Positions 39,658-50,746 of a stretch of 64,000 bases of DNA are shown piece by piece. The number at the start of each line of letters is the position of its first letter. The first letter of the stretch is position 1. Location of the stretch: NCBI GenBank assembly GCA_965116875.1, contig OZ220733.1:4672001-4736000 (forward strand), written 5' to 3'. The position numbers and the translations under genes were made by a program. The DNA comes from Candidatus Latescibacterota bacterium (lineage in GTDB: Bacteria > Latescibacterota > UBA2968 > GCA-2709665). The notes beneath the pieces were generated by a model. It did not search any database. It was given only the letters and a program-made list of their open reading frames with translations, and was not told the DNA's origin.

Positions 39658-41264
39658 TCGCCGACTCCCCTCCCCTCATCTTCCGGTGGTCCGCCGACCT
39701 GATTGTCTTCAGATGCCGCGGGCTGTACTACCGCGCCGTCTTCCGAAAGCTCGATTTCTTCGTCCGCCGCGGGCTCATTCCCGTCCTCGTCTGCGGCAGC
39801 AACGGCTTCGGCAGTCGCCGCCGCTTCCTCTTCCGCGATACGCGCTGCTTCCTCTTCCGCGATACGCGCTGCTTCCTCCTCCGCGATACGCGCTGCTTCC
39901 TCCTCCGCAAGACGCGCCGCTTCCTCCTCCGCAAGACGCGCCGCTTCCTCCTCCGCCAGACGCGCTGCTTCCTCGGCCCGCTGCTTTTCAAGTTCCTCGC
40001 GGTAGGCCTGAACCTTTACGTTCACGATTTCTTCCGCGGCACTCTGGATTTTTTCTCCGGTGGACTCCCCGACTCCGGGCACTTCGAGCAATCTGACCAG
40101 CGATACATCCACAAGATCGTTGGCGGACAATATTCCGGCGGCCTCGAGACGTTCCAGCATCACCTTCCCCACCCCGGCGACTTCCGACAACGGAACAAAT
40201 GTCGCCTCCTTCTCCAATTGCATTTCCTGGAACCGGGTCTCGGTGATGATGTCGACCTTCCAGCCCGTAAGTTGCGCGGCCAGACGGGCGTTCTGTCCCG
40301 ACTTGCCAATGGCGAGCGACAACTGATCATCGTCGACGATCGCCGTCATCGTCGTTTTGTTTCGATCGACAACCACACGCTTGACCGTGGCGGGACTCAG
40401 CGAACGCGAAAGGAAGATGGCTTCATCGTCGCTCCAGGGAACAATGTCGATCCGCTCGTTGCTCAACTCCCGGACAACCGCCTGGACGCGGGAGCCCTTC
40501 ATCCCCACGCATGCGCCAACCGGATCGATCCTGGCGTCGTTCGAGTACACCGCGATTTTCGCCCTTTCGCCCGGCTCACGAGCGACAGCCTTGATTTCAA
40601 TGACGCCCTCATAGATTTCAGGGACTTCGAACTGAAAAAGCCTGACCACAAATTGCGGATGGGTCCGCGACAGCACCACCTGAGGTCCCTTGGAGGTGCG
40701 GAGGACGTTCACAAGATAGGCTCGGATCGGGTCGCCCTGACGGTAACGCTCCTTGCGAATCTGCTCCTTGAGCGGGATGACCGCCTCCGTGCGCCCCAGG
40801 TTGATGAGAATATCGCCGTGGCTGATCTGCTGGACGGTTCCGCTGATGATTTCGCCGATCCGGGTCTGGTAGTCCTCGTAGATCTTCTCGCGTTCGGCCT
40901 CCCGTACCCGCTGGATCAGGATCTGTTTGGTGGACTGGATGGCATTCCGGCCGAAATCGGCGAACCGGAGCATCTCCCGGATCTCAGTGTTGACCTTGAC
41001 GCCCGGCTGAATCTCCCGGGCAGCCGTAAGACCGATCTGCAAGGCAGGGTCCTCAACCTCATCGTCCTTGACGACGGATTTGGTGGCGAAGACCTCGATA
41101 TTGCCGGAGCTGGCGTCGATATTGACCTCGACGTTGTCCGAGGTGCCGAACCGCCTCTTCGTTGCGGAAAGCAGTCCGATTTCAAGGGTTTCGATAACCA
41201 GCGTCTTGTCGACGTTCTTTTCCTGAGCAATCTGGCCCAGCGCCTCCAGGACTTCGTAATTCAA
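39654..41264 (-). CDS. nusA: Transcription termination/antitermination factor NusA with repetitive acidic C-terminal extension
   Basis: FGRNAIQ, AREPGERAKIAV, DPVGACVG, SLAIGKSGQNARLA. Confidence 0.96.
   Translation of the reverse strand: MNYEVLEALGQIAQEKNVDKTLVIETLEIGLLSATKRRFGTSDNVEVNIDASSGNIEVFATKSVVKDDEVEDPALQIGLTAAREIQPGVKVNTEIREMLRFADFGRNAIQSTKQILIQRVREAEREKIYEDYQTRIGEIISGTVQQISHGDILINLGRTEAVIPLKEQIRKERYRQGDPIRAYLVNVLRTSKGPQVVLSRTHPQFVVRLFQFEVPEIYEGVIEIKAVAREPGERAKIAVYSNDARIDPVGACVGMKGSRVQAVVRELSNERIDIVPWSDDEAIFLSRSLSPATVKRVVVDRNKTTMTAIVDDDQLSLAIGKSGQNARLAAQLTGWKVDIITETRFQEMQLEKEATFVPLSEVAGVGKVMLERLEAAGILSANDLVDVSLVRLLEVPGVGESTGEKIQSAAEEIVNVKVQAYREELEKQRAEEAARLAEEEAARLAEEEAARLAEEEAARIAEEEAARIAEEEAARIAEEEAAATAEAVAAADEDGNEPAADEEIELSEDGAVVQPAASEDNQVGGPPEDEGRGVGE
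39821..39978 (-). repeat. 24-bp tandem repeat (~6 copies) encoding AEEEAAR(L/I) in the NusA tail
   Basis: GCTTCCTC(T/C)TCCGC-n-ACGCGC repeated at a 24-bp period. Confidence 0.9.
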
Positions 41265-43901: not shown

Positions 43902-45320
43902 TCAGGCCACCTGATGCGACGTGATATACGGATGCTGCGTTTCCGCTGGATCGTGAACTGCGCCCGGGCGCCGCGCATCCCCGCGGGCGACCCGCGCCGC
44001 CGTATCCGCAAGATCATAGGTGCCAACCCGGACCGGGCGTTTCATGGCCAGTTCCACGTCGTTCGGGGTGAGGTCGTCAAGAAACAGGCCGTGATGACTG
44101 ACGCAGTTGGGCGGCAAAATCACGACGTCGGTCTCCTGCCACTGCGTTTCAAGGGCATGCAGCATGTCCGCTCCTGTCAGCAGTCCCGAGACCGTAATTC
44201 CTTCACCCAGAAAGCGGTTCTTCACCTCCACAACGTGCGCGGTCATCCACGGGATCCGGTTCAGTCGCTCCGCCATCGGCCGGATGAAACCCGCACCAAG
44301 CACGCTCGTGACCAGCGTCATTGTAATCGGTCTGCAATTCAGCGTTTCCAGATCGGCCACTCCCTCCTCGAAGAGATCCGAGAACCGCCGGACCATTCCA
44401 ACGCCGTTTTCCACGAGCGGAAAGCCGTCGTAGTGCGCGGCCTCCGGGATTCCCTGACCGGCCATCAGATAGAACTCGTCCCCGAAATAGACGAAATTGA
44501 CGCCGAACCTGCGGTGAAGTTGGCGCTGCCACGCCGCGGCGTGGTCCAGGCACGTTTGTGCGACTTCGGGAGTTACCGGGTCCAGGCGCGGCAGATTCTG
44601 GCGGTACCGGGTCAGTCCCAGTGGAACAATGCCCACGGACGCTATGGAAGGGTACCATTGGGCCAGATCAAACACCGTGCGCTTCAGGTGCTGCCCGTCG
44701 TTGACGCCCGGGCACAGAACAACCTGCGCGTGCATTTGAATGTTGTGTTTCGCCAGGAATCCGATGCGCTCCATGACGTCCACCGGCTCCGAACGCCCCA
44801 GCAACGTACCCCTGAGATCCGGATCGGTGGCGTGGACCGAAATGTACATGGGACTCAGACGCTGTTCGACAATTCTCATAAACTCCGCTTCGGACAGATT
44901 CGTGAGCGTTACGTACGCGCCGTGCAGGAATGAAAGTCTGTAATCATCATCCTGATAATAAAGGGTTTTACGCATTTTCCTTGGCATCTGGTGGAGAAAA
45001 CAGAATACGCACTTGTTGTTGCATTTGATGATGGGCATCTCGGCCAGGGTCAGGCCAAGATCGTCGTCCGTGTCCTTTTCGATATCCACCACGACGACGT
45101 CCGTTCCCCGCCGGAGAACCACCTCCACCGCTTCTTCGGCGACGTGGAAACGATAGTCGATGGGATCGCGAACGGATTCGCCGTTGATGGTCTCGATGAC
45201 GTCCCCGGGAAGGATGCCGACAGCCTCTCCGGTACCTCCGGAGACAACGGCTTCAACACCAATTCCAGCGACAGCTTCATCGACCTGAGGCAGTCCCTCT
45301 ATCTTTCCCGACTTTAACAT
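43902..45320 (-). CDS. PDZ + DUF512 putative Fe-S/radical-SAM-like protein
   Basis: GILPGDVIETING (PDZ), CNNKCVFC, DDDYRLSFLHG, ENGVG, TVSGLLTG. Confidence 0.85.
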   Translation of the reverse strand: MLKSGKIEGLPQVDEAVAGIGVEAVVSGGTGEAVGILPGDVIETINGESVRDPIDYRFHVAEEAVEVVLRRGTDVVVVDIEKDTDDDLGLTLAEMPIIKCNNKCVFCFLHQMPRKMRKTLYYQDDDYRLSFLHGAYVTLTNLSEAEFMRIVEQRLSPMYISVHATDPDLRGTLLGRSEPVDVMERIGFLAKHNIQMHAQVVLCPGVNDGQHLKRTVFDLAQWYPSIASVGIVPLGLTRYRQNLPRLDPVTPEVAQTCLDHAAAWQRQLHRRFGVNFVYFGDEFYLMAGQGIPEAAHYDGFPLVENGVGMVRRFSDLFEEGVADLETLNCRPITMTLVTSVLGAGFIRPMAERLNRIPWMTAHVVEVKNRFLGEGITVSGLLTGADMLHALETQWQETDVVILPPNCVSHHGLFLDDLTPNDVELAMKRPVRVGTYDLADTAARVARGDARRPGAVHDPAETQHPYITSHQVA

Positions 45321-47059: not shown

Positions 47060-47163
47060 CAACCTGGTTTTCGTGATCCGGATCAATCCCGTACAAAACC
47101 GCCAATTGAAGCCACTTTTCGAACCTCATCTCCGAGAATTCCACGGTTCCTGGACAACAATGT
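47060..47163. repeat. ~104-bp dispersed direct repeat, copy 1
   Basis: Ungapped match of roughly 80% to 48496-48599. Confidence 0.75.
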
Positions 47164-47177
47164 CCGCACATGTATTC

Positions 47178-47202
47178 GTAGGGGCGACCCTTGTGGTCGC
47201 CT
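47178..47202. repeat. GTAG-type REP-like palindrome
   Basis: GTAG-GGGCGACC-cttgt-GGTCGCCT. Confidence 0.7.
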
Positions 47203-47286
47203 TGGGGTCGGCAGACTTCGAATGTCAATGCAGACCTGCCGAAACGTGGTCATTGAGCTTGTCGAAATGCCCGTGTATCGTACACC

Positions 47287-47952: not shown

Positions 47953-48013
47953 TAGATTATTTCCGGGCTGATTTTCGGGCGAAAGCTCAGGTTTGGTTCA
48001 ATTCGAAACAAAA

Positions 48014-48470
48014 CAACCGTCAATTTACCGCAAAAAGCACAAAAGGCACAGAAGGTTACATTGCGTGAACGAGGGGAAAGGGAATCAAACTACGAATAAC
48101 GCGAATCGACGCGAAAAAGGCTGAAAGGCAGAAAAAAGCATTGGTCAGTGGTCAGCGAGAAAACGGGAGATTCTTCGACTCCGCTCAGAATGACACGTTG
48201 ACCGATAGGCGGGCACGTTGCTTCCCGCTGTCATCCAGAGGAGGCCTGCGCGCGACGCCGGCGAAACATACCCGTTACACGTACTTCCCACTGTCATTTC
48301 CGGAAGACTTGCCCTGAGCCTGCGGTCCCTGAGCTTGTCGAAGAGTCGAAAGATGCGCAGGCCGACGAAGGATCTACTGCAGCATCAGATCAACGGCGAG
48401 CGTCTCCCTATCAGTCTGAACAAAAATGCAGCACAAGCGTTCCTGCTTCGACTTCGCTCAGAATGACATG
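48014..48470. repeat. Cluster of short repeats: AAACTACGAA periodic unit, REP-like TGTCAT.../...AGAATGACA elements, nested CCCTGAGCTTGTCGAAG
   Basis: 48087 AAACTACGAATAACGCGAATCGACGCGAA; CTTCGACT(C/T)CGCTCAGAATGACA at ~48173 and ~48446; 48323 CGGTCCCTGAGCTTGTCGAAG. Confidence 0.75.
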
Positions 48471-48495
48471 GGTTGCAACAGATGCGAACCCATGA

Positions 48496-48599
48496 CAACC
48501 TGTTCATTGTTATCCGAGTCAGACCTGTACAAGATCGCCAATTGAAGGCACTTTTCAAACCTCATCTCCAGGAATCCCACGGTTCCTGGACAGCAATGT
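48496..48599. repeat. ~104-bp dispersed direct repeat, copy 2
   Basis: Matches 47060-47163; contains the hairpin CCAGGAA...TTCCTGG. Confidence 0.75.
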
Positions 48600-48651
48600 G
48601 ACCTCATAAATATTTCTCTAATTCGCGCTGGACGGGTTCAGTTCTTCTGTT

Positions 48652-49365: not shown

Positions 49366-49659
49366 TCATACGAAAAGCGCGTCCTTTTCGATACGTAGAA
49401 TTAACGGAGTGCGGATGTTCTTACTCAGTCGGCGGATATCCACCCTGCACCCGAGAGCTTGTTCCAGATAGATGTGAAGTCCGGCCAGATCGTCAAACTT
49501 TGGTTTCCTGAGTTCTACAACGAAATCGACGTCGCTGTCTTCCCGCTGCGTACCCGAAGCGTATGACCCGTACAGGCCGATCCGGCGGACGCCAAATTGA
49601 CGATCCAGTTCCGCTTTATTCTGGGCAAGAAACCTGAGGATGTCCTGTCTCGATTTCAT
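49366..49659 (-). CDS. Minimal nucleotidyltransferase (MNT) family protein
   Basis: FGVRRIGLYGSYASGTQREDSDVDFVVE. Confidence 0.88.
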   Translation of the reverse strand: MKSRQDILRFLAQNKAELDRQFGVRRIGLYGSYASGTQREDSDVDFVVELRKPKFDDLAGLHIYLEQALGCRVDIRRLSKNIRTPLILRIEKDALFV

Positions 49660-49702
49660 TGTCGCTTCTCAAATTACGGGTGCGTGAAGTTCGATGAAAG
49701 CA

Positions 49703-49920
49703 AAACTACGAATAACACGAATTGACGCGAATAAGGCGGAAAAGCACGAAACTACGAATATACGAAAAGGCACGAAAAGGCAGAGGCATTAAACTACGAA
49801 TAACGCGAACAAGGCGGAAAGTCACAAACTTCGAAAAAGCGCGAAAAAGGCTGAAAGGCAAAACTACGAACAGCGCGAATAGACGGGAAAAAGGCTGAGA
49901 ATCATCAAAATACGAAAAAA
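49703..49920 (+). repeat. Array of 5-6 AAACTACGAA-led units with internal 9-10-bp CGAA/GGAA periodicity
   Basis: Units start at 49703, 49749, 49791, 49826, 49861 and (degenerate) 49907. Confidence 0.85.
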
Positions 49921-49935
49921 TGGGAATGATGAGGC

Positions 49936-50321
49936 CTATTGTTCGTTTACGAAACGTTCGTATTCCAGCCCTGGATGATGGCCGAAGTTGACGAGCAGAC
50001 CGAGTTTCACGCCGGTTGATTTCAGGTAGTTGATGATCTGGGCGCGATGTTCATCGTTCAGTTGTTTCACTGCCTTGATTTCCACGACGATTTTATCGGA
50101 ACAGAGAAAATTCGGCTGGTAGAACTGATTCAACGCCAGTCTCTTATAATGAAGTCTTGAATCTTTTTTCTCCTGTTACGGGATCGCGGAAGAAGCGAAT
50201 TCTATTGCAAGACACTCCTTGTAAACCGCTTCGAGAAAGCCGGCTCCTTTCTCGTTATGCGCTTCAAAACAGCCCCTATAATTCGATAGCTTTCCTCTCT
50301 GTAGACGATTGTGCTGGTCAT
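49936..50321 (-). pseudogene. GxxExxY (PD-(D/E)XK-like) protein pseudogene
   Basis: MTSTIVYREESYRIIG[1-nt frameshift]CFEAHNEKGAGFLEAVYKECL..IP[TAA]...KIVVEIKAV..HRAQIINYLKSTGVKLGLLVNFG. Confidence 0.88.
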
Positions 50322-50326
50322 TTCTT

Positions 50327-50389
50327 TCGCTTCTGTTCGCGTCATTTGTAGTTCATCAGGTTTGCGTCTATTCGTGACTTTCGTAGTTA
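50327..50389 (-). repeat. Two AACTAC(G/A)AA periodic units, inverted relative to 49703-49920
   Basis: Minus strand AACTACGAAAGTCACGAATAGACGCAAA and AACTACAAATGACGCGAACAGAAGCGAA. Confidence 0.75.
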
Positions 50390-50487
50390 ATCAGGAACAT
50401 GGAGCGAATAGTTCGAGGATCTTGCGGTCTGTCCGAAGCGGTCCTGAGCACGTCGGTGTCCAGAACGTGGGAATTAGCGGCCATCAT
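50390..50487 (-). pseudogene. Truncated PIN (VapC-like) toxin N-terminus
   Basis: MMAANSHVLDTDVL overlaps the AbrB stop and runs into the repeat. Confidence 0.5.
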
Positions 50488-50746
50488 TGCTATAGATCTC
50501 ATCCCTATTCCACGACGTCGATCTTCCCGTCCTGACTGTCACCAGTTCCAGCTTTGGGATATCCGTATCTGTCGTACTTGTCCGGACCAACCCATCGAGA
50601 CCGGATTCATCATTCGACACGGGACGAACAACGAAGCCGCCATGCCCTTTCTCAATCTTAAGATGGTCTCCGGGACCTACCCGCAGCATGTTCAGCACCC
50701 GCTTTGGCAGGGTAACCTGGCCTTCTGAGCTCATCTTGACAATCAT
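50474..50746 (-). CDS. AbrB/MazE-type antitoxin
   Basis: KMSSEGQVTLPKRV..LRVGPGDHL; AAGGAGG SD. Confidence 0.85.
   Translation of the reverse strand: MIVKMSSEGQVTLPKRVLNMLRVGPGDHLKIEKGHGGFVVRPVSNDESGLDGLVRTSTTDTDIPKLELVTVRTGRSTSWNRDEIYSNDGR

Follow-up and report, generated by a model that had tools for sequence, protein, structure and literature searches.

Inward-facing repeat arms around a decayed GxxExxY nuclease gene suggest a previously undescribed type of selfish cassette

We analysed a 64-kb stretch of a Latescibacterota genome (hereafter, the window) and found a decayed GxxExxY cassette in which the gene is flanked by two inward-facing repeat arms. This layout turns out to be the rule for the GxxExxY family across bacteria and archaea, and it suggests that these genes belong to selfish cassettes of a type not yet described. 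Our preferred reading, to which we give roughly even odds (probability about 0.5), is that the locus is the remnant of a compact cassette whose nuclease gene lies between arms that are putative binding sites for its own nuclease. No description of repeats around GxxExxY genes was found in the full-text literature searched.

A decayed cassette in the window

The cassette spans window positions 49697–50392 (Table 1). As proposed in the initial annotation, a GxxExxY pseudogene lies between inverted arrays, with five to six units on one side and two inverted units on the other. The C-terminal open reading frame (ORF) of the gene matches PF13366 (E = 9.2e-19), and in a genome search the copy, with one TAA inside, scored 114.7 bits against a curated profile cut-off of 22. 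Alignment to intact orthologues located the lesions at a 1-nt deletion (~50272/50273) and a TAC-to-TAA change (50176–50178), and neither lesion is present in relatives from contigs of runs X3 and X7, which retain the missing G and are free of the stop. The frameshift and stop thus identify the window copy as a pseudogene of the GxxExxY family. Its start had been placed at 50345, but the ATG at 50321 is the likelier one. The minus strand encodes the gene, which places the long left array at its downstream side and the pair of right-hand units at its upstream side. Intact orthologues in five genomes (G046, G047, G050, G051 and G058) bear the same arms as the window copy. The cassette protein matched only PF13366 and TIGR04256 among Pfam and NCBIfam families, with the intact orthologue L036 matching TIGR04256 at E = 2.8e-42.

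Table 1 Features of the cassette locus and its surroundings (window coordinates)
Feature	Position	Strand	Details
Solo gene-less arm unit, same type as the cassette arms	48087..48130	+	Inside purine-rich array 47990-48135
Nucleotidyltransferase (MNT-like) gene adjoining the downstream arm	49366..49659	-	PF01909, E = 1.1e-12; context only
Downstream arm, amplified	49697..49925	+	5-6 super-units of ~35-45 nt; inverted relative to gene
GxxExxY / PDDEXK_3 nuclease pseudogene	49936..50321	-	1-nt deletion, internal TAA; stop codon 49936-49938
Upstream arm	50322..50392	-	Two super-units, sense orientation; outer end GATTAAC (50386-50392)
PIN (VapC-like) gene stump	50393..50502	-	Cut at ~codon 38 by the upstream arm; listed ORF 50368-50502 extends into the arm
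MazE/AbrB-type antitoxin gene, partner of the truncated PIN gene	50474..50746	-	PF04014, E = 4.3e-9; context only

Each super-unit of the downstream arm is made up of AAACTACGAA, N4, RCGCGAA and GGCKGAAA. Allowing at most one mismatch, AAACTACGAA has 11 matches in the 64-kb window compared with 2.13 expected (0 of 100 shuffles reached 11), including six at 49703–49916 on the plus strand and one at 50380–50389 on the minus strand. Across the 229 nt of the downstream arm, the plus strand contains 14 copies of CGAA and a single TTCG; the mean for CGAA is 1.53 per 229-nt segment over the whole 64 kb and both strands, and a count of 14 was reached in 1 of 6378 segments. Successive CGAA/GGAA motifs in this array are spaced 8–11 nt apart in 12 of 16 cases. 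The periodicity of about one helical turn reported previously is real; the period is 8–10 nt and not strictly 9–10 nt.

Units in both arms are degenerate and abut one another with 2–5-nt linkers, forming direct, strand-asymmetric arrays. Palindromy arises solely between the two arms, where we found inverted pairs of 28 nt (82% identity), 24 nt (83%) and 20 nt (90%), in agreement with the earlier description of the units as non-palindromic and without unique spacers. A CRISPR array is ruled out by the same properties, namely degenerate, abutting units that lack unique spacers. An integron attC interpretation of the TTAAC termini is likewise ruled out, as the ORF has an arm at either side, its termini are inverted and not direct (TTCACC...GGTGAA), and each cassette occurs singly. 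The length of the downstream array differs among contigs of relatives, indicating that slippage does act on this arm.

The PIN gene is indeed cut at the right-hand array, as first noted: its stump encodes 44 aa, compared with 157 aa for the orthologue in G057, and the same stump is present in G047. The nucleotidyltransferase neighbour is shared with G047 and G051. In G057 the PIN gene is intact, but the nucleotidyltransferase gene lies ~10 kb away, and so the site there has been rearranged and is not a simple empty allele. The flanks of the cassette are protein genes, with no rRNA match between positions 44000 and 54000, and an Rfam search of the 44–54-kb region returned nothing except one chance-level lncRNA match (E = 0.23).

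Arm architecture and cores across the GxxExxY family

We surveyed 110 loci representing the best-scoring GxxExxY matches, which are not a random sample of the family, and found flanks scoring ≥30 as inverted repeats at 75 of 105 GxxExxY loci from many phyla. The same score was reached by 3% of 228 control ORFs from these loci and by 7% of permuted partners, whereas no shuffle reached it (0%; Mann–Whitney p = 1e-34). The initial annotation had predicted that GxxExxY homologs elsewhere would be flanked in this way, and inverted repeats with a period of about one turn are strongly enriched at these genes, differing from copy to copy; the lack of enrichment that it had named as refuting was not observed. 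An arm typically contains two to four copies of a heptamer-like core placed 9–10 nt apart, the commonest spacings being 9 nt (167 cases) followed by 10 nt (94 cases), and has outer ends of the TTAAC/TTCAC type. At least two core matches were present in both arms at 92 of 105 loci.

Cores are specific to the element. In two genomes with multiple paralogues (nine in G169 and five in G168), every copy has its own core, which is identical on both arms. Cognate arms outscore non-cognate arms of the same core (median 37 versus 28). For pairs of elements in unrelated contexts, arm similarity climbs with protein identity (rho = 0.38, 4430 pairs), with a median arm score of 94 at ≥80% protein identity and ~32–36 below 65%. 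Two pairs of close elements from unrelated contexts were aligned, and in both the homology begins and ends at the outer core, running from TTTACAC... to ...GTGTAAA. Arms and gene move together into contexts that are otherwise unrelated. A search for protein residues linked to the core could draw on only six well-supported independent pairs, and the one suggestive column from a pair scan (23 of 28 discordant versus 7 of 33 concordant pairs) is confounded by divergence and by GC content or taxon.

The family is very large: of 1.84 billion cluster representatives, 39,667 match PF13366/TIGR04256 at E ≤ 1e-3, and 18,730 do so at the stricter E ≤ 1e-10. Its function is listed as 'Unknown' in a published compilation (PMC3424549). 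The residues of the G..E..Y helix and the D...ExK catalytic motif hardly vary across 119 GxxExxY sequences, with G, G, E, Y, D, E and N invariant and K almost always present. Some members are fusions of two domains, as would fit a dimeric working unit, and from its conserved residues and domain forms the enzyme looks active and dimer-prone. A sequence search for relatives of the protein in the PDB found none, the best match being a Cas4-like chain (E = 0.41).

These observations suggest how a cassette might work. It consists of a ~125-aa PD-(D/E)XK nuclease gene between two inward-facing arms, each formed by one core repeated about once per helical turn and ending in an outward TTAAC-like terminus, with gene and arms inherited and relocated as a single unit. 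The arms are most likely cis sites for the cassette's own nuclease; we infer that they would form arrays of sites, with a protomer bound at every turn along the same face of the helix, and that an oligomer could bring the two arms together. The enzyme may then act on the arm sites, either at the outermost termini or where a gene-less pair of arms is present, after which host repair or recombination would retain or spread the cassette and its gene-less derivatives. The logic would be that of REP/RAYT systems or homing, with a different enzyme and repeat design. The cassette has no obvious promoter logic of its own and would rely on transcription of the host operon.

Reliance on a host transcript is also central to a second, rather unlikely explanation, in which the cassette acts at the RNA level in the manner of 23S rRNA intervening sequences (IVSs). 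The arms would pair in the host transcript and RNase III would cut the stem, freeing a small mRNA while leaving the host RNA usable, with the cores being a by-product of slippage or of protein–RNA binding. A comparable arrangement is described for the Coxiella 23S IVS, whose four-helix-bundle ORF is enclosed by terminal inverted repeats; these form a stem of 28 bp that RNase III cuts, and three to four tandem heptamers precede the ORF (PMC4990558). We found that four-helix-bundle (23S rRNA IVS-type) genes in the phylum of the window have the same arm layout with other cores. Further, GxxExxY cassettes are single, lie in operon spacers (including those of housekeeping operons) and are co-oriented with the upstream neighbour in 73 of 78 cases and with both sides in 57 of 78, compared with 42 and 24 of 59 controls. 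The likeness to the IVS thus extends to a small ORF within terminal inverted repeats, upstream tandem heptamers and co-orientation with the host transcript, and the IVS, like the cassette, is regarded as selfish without a known way of moving (PMC4990558). In contrast to the IVS, the cassette carries a nuclease instead of a four-helix bundle and lies between protein genes and not in helix 25/45 of 23S rRNA; RNase III excision has been demonstrated for the IVS (PMC4990558).

Arm-to-arm identity is 0.94 within cores and 0.81 outside them; to say that mismatches are confined to the spacers would be too strong, since identity outside the cores is still 0.81, and together with the advantage of cognate arms this value is compatible with arm pairing as RNA or single-stranded DNA. 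However, mismatches between arms include 89 sense-compatible and 107 antisense-compatible transitions, with no G:U bias, and 276 of 472 are transversions, and the statistics of the arm sequences give no sign of a selected RNA stem. Rfam searches of 18 GxxExxY loci and of L001 matched no family. In addition, the core sequence is conserved across phyla, which pairing would not need, and an RNA-level process accounts for tolerance and expression of the cassette but not for how it reaches new sites or why gene-less arms track the gene.

Gene-less arms, other cargoes and genomic sites

Arms are not restricted to GxxExxY genes. Arms of the same design with other cores flank PF05635 genes, for which the inverted-repeat score reaches 30 at 8 of 30 loci (median 27 versus 16 for permuted partners), and CACAGA-type arms flank a 61-aa non-nuclease ORF, implying that the nuclease need not be the mover. 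Many arms also lack a gene altogether, including solo arms and 3+3 palindromes that bear cognate cores. The arms could accordingly be ends of small mobile cassettes that are moved by another enzyme, encoded by the host or by another element, with GxxExxY nucleases, four-helix-bundle proteins and further small ORFs as frequent passengers. We consider this unlikely, in view of the core particular to each GxxExxY copy and of the distribution of gene-less arms. Among 151 Flavobacterium genomes, triple-core (CRCARAK-type) arrays are nearly confined to those with a GxxExxY gene: 79 of the 118 genomes that carry the gene have them, as do 4 of the 33 that lack it (Fisher p = 1.6e-8), counts in which kin are not independent and genome size may be a confounder. 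Moreover, no candidate third enzyme was seen beside the cassettes in the 110 loci, as judged by eye.

Some Flavobacterium genomes contain 20–34 arrays yet have only two to four copies of the gene, and a reversed-pattern control gave one match in all Flavobacterium genomes together. Within the genus of the window, dispersed arm units match the arm variant found at the genome's own gene (for example, 56 units in G050). Gene-less arms that are dispersed and, in Flavobacterium, co-occur with the gene fit a repeat-propagating system.

One site in Flavobacterium, a spacer of the bat operon, was found in several states. At least seven genomes match continuously through the cassette, while in nine others the spacer is 5–125 bp long and in some of these holds solo arms. 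The series runs from complete cassettes through solo arms that keep just the final bases of the gene to minimal spacers of 5–11 bp; presence, decay and absence are all seen at orthologous sites, as expected had the initial annotation been right about a mobile or propagating unit. The trpD–trpC spacer also holds cassettes in two proteobacterial classes (L113 and L128), but their proteins are only 60% identical and are not mutual nearest relatives, and so do not speak for site-specific spread.

In a comparison of two aligned pairs of close elements and of the bat-operon site, we saw no target-site duplication. Paralogues of GxxExxY within a genome have a median identity of 38–40%, and the nine in G169 reach a maximum of 77% (median 40%); by these values they are old and divergent, with no sign of recent gene bursts. 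The initial proposal of an undescribed nuclease-plus-repeat system thus holds in part: it is favoured by the enrichment of repeats at the gene and by dispersed gene-less arms that co-occur with it, while no target-site duplication was seen at the sites compared and the paralogues are old.

The age of the paralogues would also suit a function without mobility, in which the arms are operator arrays by which the protein controls itself or its neighbours, or in which the cassette benefits the host (a guard nuclease, for instance), with mainly vertical inheritance. Most sampled genes are intact, with stop-free reading frames in 119 of 123, and the bat-operon site is occupied in distant Flavobacterium species. 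We nevertheless judge such a function quite improbable. Close relatives occupy unrelated contexts, cassettes split or truncate host genes (PIN in the window and metH in L064), and, by hand count, the table of GxxExxY matches contains 30 fragments and a further 8 near-full-length copies with stops. Solo arms, the decay series at a single site and the dispersal of gene-less arms argue in the same direction.

Octamer arrays (RCGARANN, at least four in a row) have 67 matches in the genome of the window, 41 in a relative without GxxExxY and none in relatives with the gene. Their occurrence in the gene-free relative rules out that these genome-wide arrays depend on the GxxExxY gene, and they are a separate matter from the cassette arms. 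That generic, slippage-prone intergenic repeats of this kind merely happen to lie beside a pseudogene is highly improbable: such arrays do occur at many loci here without tracking the gene and the downstream arm does vary in length among relatives, but the layout recurs at most surveyed loci in many phyla with quite different cores, the five genomes with intact orthologues share the arms, and reversed control patterns for both the octamer arrays and the arm units of the genus gave 0 matches, which refutes coincidence for the family as a whole, although plain slippage may explain some of the five-to-six-unit expansion at 49697–49925.

Known systems and significance

REP/RAYT systems also pair one small gene of the nuclease type, lying between inverted repeats, with gene-less inverted doublets or solos that are dispersed and co-occur with the gene. 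RAYTs, however, are HUH/Y1 (IS200-like) enzymes and REPs are short imperfect palindromes, whereas the cassette enzyme has a PD-(D/E)XK fold with no HUH/Y1 match, its arm is a non-palindromic array with a core every 9–10 nt, and several divergent GxxExxY paralogues, each with its own core, coexist in a genome. Homing endonuclease genes, including those of the PD-(D/E)XK type, are likewise small nuclease ORFs wedged at conserved host genes, with occupied, degenerate and empty states at one site. To our knowledge they recognize sequences of the host and do not bring arms with them, while the flanks of the cassette are element-borne repeats that move with the gene.

The ends of Tn7, Mu and CACTA elements are inverted, contain several direct copies of a short motif and have defined outer termini. 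Cassettes share inverted, multi-copy ends with defined termini, but are only ~0.5 kb long, lack a DDE enzyme and showed no target duplication at the sites compared. They also differ from insertion sequences and transposons in the absence of near-identical gene copies within a genome, as seen for the paralogues of G169. Cyanobacterial short tandemly repeated repetitive (STRR) sequences are intergenic tandem arrays of a 7-nt unit with unknown function; as far as we know from the literature searched, they have been described as repeats alone and not as inverted arms around a gene family.

The fixed, element-specific DNA architecture provides the first concrete and testable hypothesis for the target of the GxxExxY nuclease, in that each GxxExxY gene sits beside its own presumed recognition sites. 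It also links the heptamers of 23S IVSs, dispersed short tandem repeats in many phyla and assembly-breaking repeats in metagenome bins, together with cases in which small cassettes split or extend host genes. Should the relation between protein and core hold, the recognition code of a very small nuclease could be learned from the many paralogues whose cores differ.

More speculatively, GxxExxY and four-helix-bundle cassettes could together form a very large, unrecognized class of minimal selfish elements, in which a protein of ~115–125 aa would read its own element-specific heptamer code, arranged with one heptamer per helical turn in the two inverted arms, and thereby maintain and propagate both the cassette and gene-less copies of the arms. 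Within that tentative picture, the elements would insert in the direction of transcription into spacers of operons, into rRNA and at times into protein genes, splitting or extending the latter. Were this true, it would account at once for where 23S rRNA intervening sequences and several families of short tandem repeats between genes come from, and the family would be a natural library of small nucleases with many readable DNA specificities.

A GxxExxY pseudogene between two arrays

The longer of the two arrays in the window is strand-asymmetric, with 14 CGAA against one TTCG in 229 nt; across the 64 kb, 229-nt windows hold a mean of 1.53 CGAA and only 1 of 6,378 reaches 14. Within this array, 12 of 16 consecutive CGAA/GGAA spacings are 8–11 nt. 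The motif AAACTACGAA occurs 11 times in the window at ≤1 mismatch (2.13 expected; 0 of 100 shuffles reach 11), with six matches in the long array. Three inverted-repeat pairings, of 28 nt (82%), 24 nt (83%) and 20 nt (90%), link the two sides of the locus, and all units of these arms point inward. Because the gene lies on the minus strand, the long left array is downstream of it and the pair of units on the right lies upstream.

Compared with intact orthologues of three relatives, the gene carries a single-nucleotide deletion and a TAC-to-TAA change. Relatives' contigs from two other runs contain the missing G, lack the stop and vary in how many array units they have. The PIN gene is reduced to 44 aa at the end of the upstream arm, its orthologue in genome G057 having 157 aa. 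The initial annotation had described a GxxExxY pseudogene flanked by inward arrays and a PIN gene truncated at the right-hand one, and both descriptions hold. The setting is a toxin–antitoxin island with MazE-type, PIN and nucleotidyltransferase genes.

Positions of features in the window, in the genome that holds it (C1) and in numbered loci (L)
Feature	Position	Strand	Remark
CGAA/GGAA array	49697-49925		
GxxExxY/PDDEXK_3 gene	between the two arrays	minus	C-terminal ORF versus PF13366 E=9.2e-19; whole match 114.7 bits, one TAA inside
ATG	50321		start in common with orthologues (alignment)
Deletion	near 50272/50273		1 nt
TAC>TAA	50176-50178		
AAACTACGAA match	50380-50389		inverted
AAACTACGAA match	48087		
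Upstream arm outer end, GATTAAC	50386-50392		abuts PIN gene stump
Intergenic element, ~110 nt	47060-47230, 48490-48600		two copies; lies between arrays
GC-rich palindromic intergenic stretches	48140-48470		between arrays; spurious ORFs on both strands
Tandem repeat, 24-nt unit	39819-39974		6.5 copies, 94% matches
RCGARANN arrays (examples)	C1:1361815-1361927, 3975380-3975501, 3264873-3265268, 2200025-2200231		some convergent pairs with short loop
Intact GxxExxY copy	L001:900-2500		amid 3-5 tandem copies of ~300-bp module
Four-helix-bundle genes L017, L018, L019	C1:2748179-2748490, 3462755-3463069, 910416-910709		
Methionine synthase split by cassette	L064:1766-6475		
Four-helix-bundle match	~1501-1818 in L133, L135, L137, L138, L157, L158		arms of CAGTGGTC type

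Inverted arms across the GxxExxY family

In the window's phylum, 65 of 168 genomes have a match to PF13366, the GxxExxY profile. We sampled 30 loci from this phylum and 80 that span many bacterial phyla plus two archaeal bins, the latter being the 80 best among 593 confirmed stretches; since loci were best-scoring matches, the sample leans to intact, typical genes. For the 105 of 110 loci with 200 nt on each side, the upstream flank was aligned to the reverse complement of the downstream flank. A local alignment score of ≥30 was reached by 75 of these 105 loci, compared with 3% of 228 control ORFs from the same loci (defined by a simple ORF rule; Mann–Whitney p=1e-34), and 4% of 114 controls of ≤200 aa; permuted partners gave 7% and shuffles 0%. 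The anticipated enrichment of inverted repeats around GxxExxY homologues was therefore found.

Median arm length is 37 nt; the arms stop ~42 nt ahead of the profile match and resume ~25 nt beyond it. Each consists of 2–4 direct copies of a core, for example CACAGAG, CGCAAAG, CGCAGAG, CGCGGAG or CACGAAG, with ACACAGAT, ACAGGAT, CACGAAT and TGATT in other clades and CTACGAA plus CGCGAA in the window's genus. Both arms hold at least two core matches at 92 of 105 loci, and the commonest start-to-start spacings are 9 nt (167 cases) and 10 nt (94), as the initial annotation predicted in expecting inverted repeats of 9–10-nt period. TTAAC, TTCAC or TTTAC precedes the outermost core, and the opposite end is the inverse. 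Whole arms are true inverted repeats, and cognate arms outscore non-cognate arms of the same core (median 37 versus 28, p=1e-9). Arm–arm identity is 0.94 inside cores and 0.81 outside, so cores are under stronger constraint than the rest of the arm.

Arms also follow their gene. Every one of nine paralogues in the complete genome G169, and of five in G168, carries a core of its own that is identical on both arms, and these paralogues share just 25–77% identity with one another. Covariation of repeats and protein, likewise predicted, was evident in arm similarity climbing with protein identity (rho 0.38; 4,430 non-independent locus pairs of unrelated wider context), the median arm score being 94 at ≥80% protein identity versus ~32–36 below 65% in these non-independent pairs. 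Mapped on the protein tree, core base 2 has changed from A to G or back at least 21 times, and base 5 has switched at least 13 times. In two close pairs from unrelated contexts, homology begins and ends at the outer core, and no target duplication was seen in either alignment. Catalytic residues are invariant or nearly so in an alignment of relatives. Fused two-domain GxxExxY proteins exist whose second domain lacks catalytic residues; three (P0001, P0002 and P0005; 276–295 aa) keep D...ExK in the first domain and have lost it in the second, and by our own count two stretches match in 38 of the best 150 representatives.

At 73 of 78 loci the gene upstream is co-oriented with the cassette (control ORFs, 42 of 59), and at 57 of 78 both neighbours are (controls, 24 of 59). 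Many cassettes occupy spacers of housekeeping operons (trpD|trpC, trpE|trpG, nuoF|nuoG, nuoM|nuoN); contexts were judged by eye, with L064 and L133 checked against Pfam. In L064, the cassette separates the homocysteine-methyltransferase domain of methionine synthase from its pterin- and B12-binding parts; a DUF559 (Vsr-like endonuclease) domain lies in frame in the downstream part, within the activation domain (residues 772–878). Presence/absence at orthologous sites was confirmed in a Flavobacterium bat-operon spacer, where a continuous match runs through the cassette in at least seven genomes. Nine other genomes examined have 5–125 bp between the same flanks: three spacers are minimal, three keep a solo downstream arm (two with the gene's last bases) and one keeps an upstream-arm remnant. 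At the empty bat-operon site of genome G221 (L191), an unrelated ~62-bp insert has TTAACC...GGTTAA borders and a small hairpin inside, a hint that further small elements share this site or this type of end. In the phylum table, a hand count of PF13366 rows gave 30 profile fragments and 8 further near-full-length genes with stops.

Gene-less arms and four-helix-bundle genes

G169 has double cores of CACAGAT type at 6 further loci and G168 at 9, mainly as solo arms right after a gene's stop, with some 3+3 palindromes; one pair encloses a 61-aa ORF with no Pfam match. Triple-core arrays were found in 79 of 118 Flavobacterium genomes with PF13366 versus 4 of 33 without, among 151 related genomes (Fisher p=1.6e-8, rho 0.55, means 4.74 versus 0.21, kinship and genome size being uncontrolled); several genomes have 20–34 arrays against only 2–4 genes, and the backwards control pattern gave 1 match altogether. 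Copies of the arm unit AACTACGAA-N4-RCGAA are dispersed across genomes of the window's genus and match the variant at the respective genome's own gene (G050, 56; G047, 29; G052, 25; G046, 24; G051, 20; window's genome, 9; control, 0). Those of G050 belong to a composite repeat of ~150–200 bp that also contains cores of the genus's second GxxExxY type. This repeat (L227–L236) joins the arm types GGACAGGAT and AACTACGAA...CGCGAA at dozens of loci, sometimes in tandem.

The window's own genome has only two PF13366 copies, the second being intact, with a different core (TGATT/AATCA), in a block of ~300-bp tandem repeats. The module there combines arm units and pieces of the gene's 5' end with a conserved ~185-nt stretch that has no Rfam match. 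This genome also has many arrays of an 8-nt RCGARANN unit, some as gene-less convergent pairs. Pattern matches range from 0 to 194 among 15 genomes of the genus and track neither PF13366 nor PF05635; G053, without a PF13366 match, has 41, and G055 and G058, with the window-type gene, have none. We therefore rejected these octamers as part of the arm system.

Four-helix-bundle genes of PF05635, the family of the 23S rRNA intervening-sequence (IVS) protein, which has weak similarity to the DGR protein Avd, were identified in 52 of the phylum's 168 genomes and are flanked by inverted arrays of 7–9-nt units with cores quite unlike those of GxxExxY. Scores of ≥30 were reached at 8 of 30 loci (median 27 versus 16 for permuted partners). 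Three own-genome genes (L017–L019) each have their own purine-rich short-period arrays with an inverted copy downstream, one alongside duplicated pieces of the gene's 3' end. Six cassettes sit at an identical position inside a DNA methylase gene (PF01555 match in L133) in four families of the phylum; a host frame of 675–736 aa reads through the cassette in 4 of 6, in all 6 an open frame leads out of the cassette into the C-terminal methylase part, and a small ORF lies in another frame.

Origin of the arms

We propose, with a probability of about 0.5, that the arms are cis sites of the cassette's own nuclease. Core sites phased one per turn would place protomers on one face of the DNA, the two arms would be synapsed, and nuclease action there, followed by host repair, would keep or spread the cassette and gene-less arm copies. 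The near-invariant catalytic residues fit this reading, two-domain fusions fit a dimeric unit, and element-specific cores and array–gene co-occurrence fit as well. Non-nuclease cargo between similar arms, the target duplication not seen in the two close pairs and the age of the paralogues count against it.

An RNase III-type RNA cassette is an unlikely alternative. A study of the Coxiella 23S rRNA IVS describes an S23p ORF preceded by 3–4 tandem GACAGAT heptamers, with a 28-bp stem at the termini that RNase III cuts, an arrangement like that of the PF05635 loci, and calls its function and origin unclear (PMC4990558). While the arms may pair with each other, G:U-compatible changes on the sense strand are not in excess (89 versus 107, binomial p=0.22) and 276 of 472 arm–arm differences are transversions, so there is no signature of a selected RNA helix; window positions 44–54 kb and 18 loci gave no Rfam family match, aside from an lncRNA hit at chance level (E=0.23) in the window. 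Somewhat less probable still is a third-party mover carrying GxxExxY and four-helix-bundle genes as cargo, for which the non-nuclease genes between similar arms speak. A non-mobile regulatory or host function, set beside the occupied and empty bat-operon sites, is improbable, and coincidence, set beside the flank scores, very much so.

A superfamily survey gives the function of GxxExxY as 'Unknown' (PMC3424549). No mention of repeats was found in the passages or listings of GxxExxY/PDDEXK_3/PF13366/TIGR04256 literature (article full text), and no description of this layout in IVS, four-helix-bundle, STRR, heptameric-repeat and homing-endonuclease literature, mostly as listings. REP/RAYT and the 23S IVS are the closest known kinds, and the GxxExxY cassette differs from both in enzyme fold, repeat design and element-specific cores.
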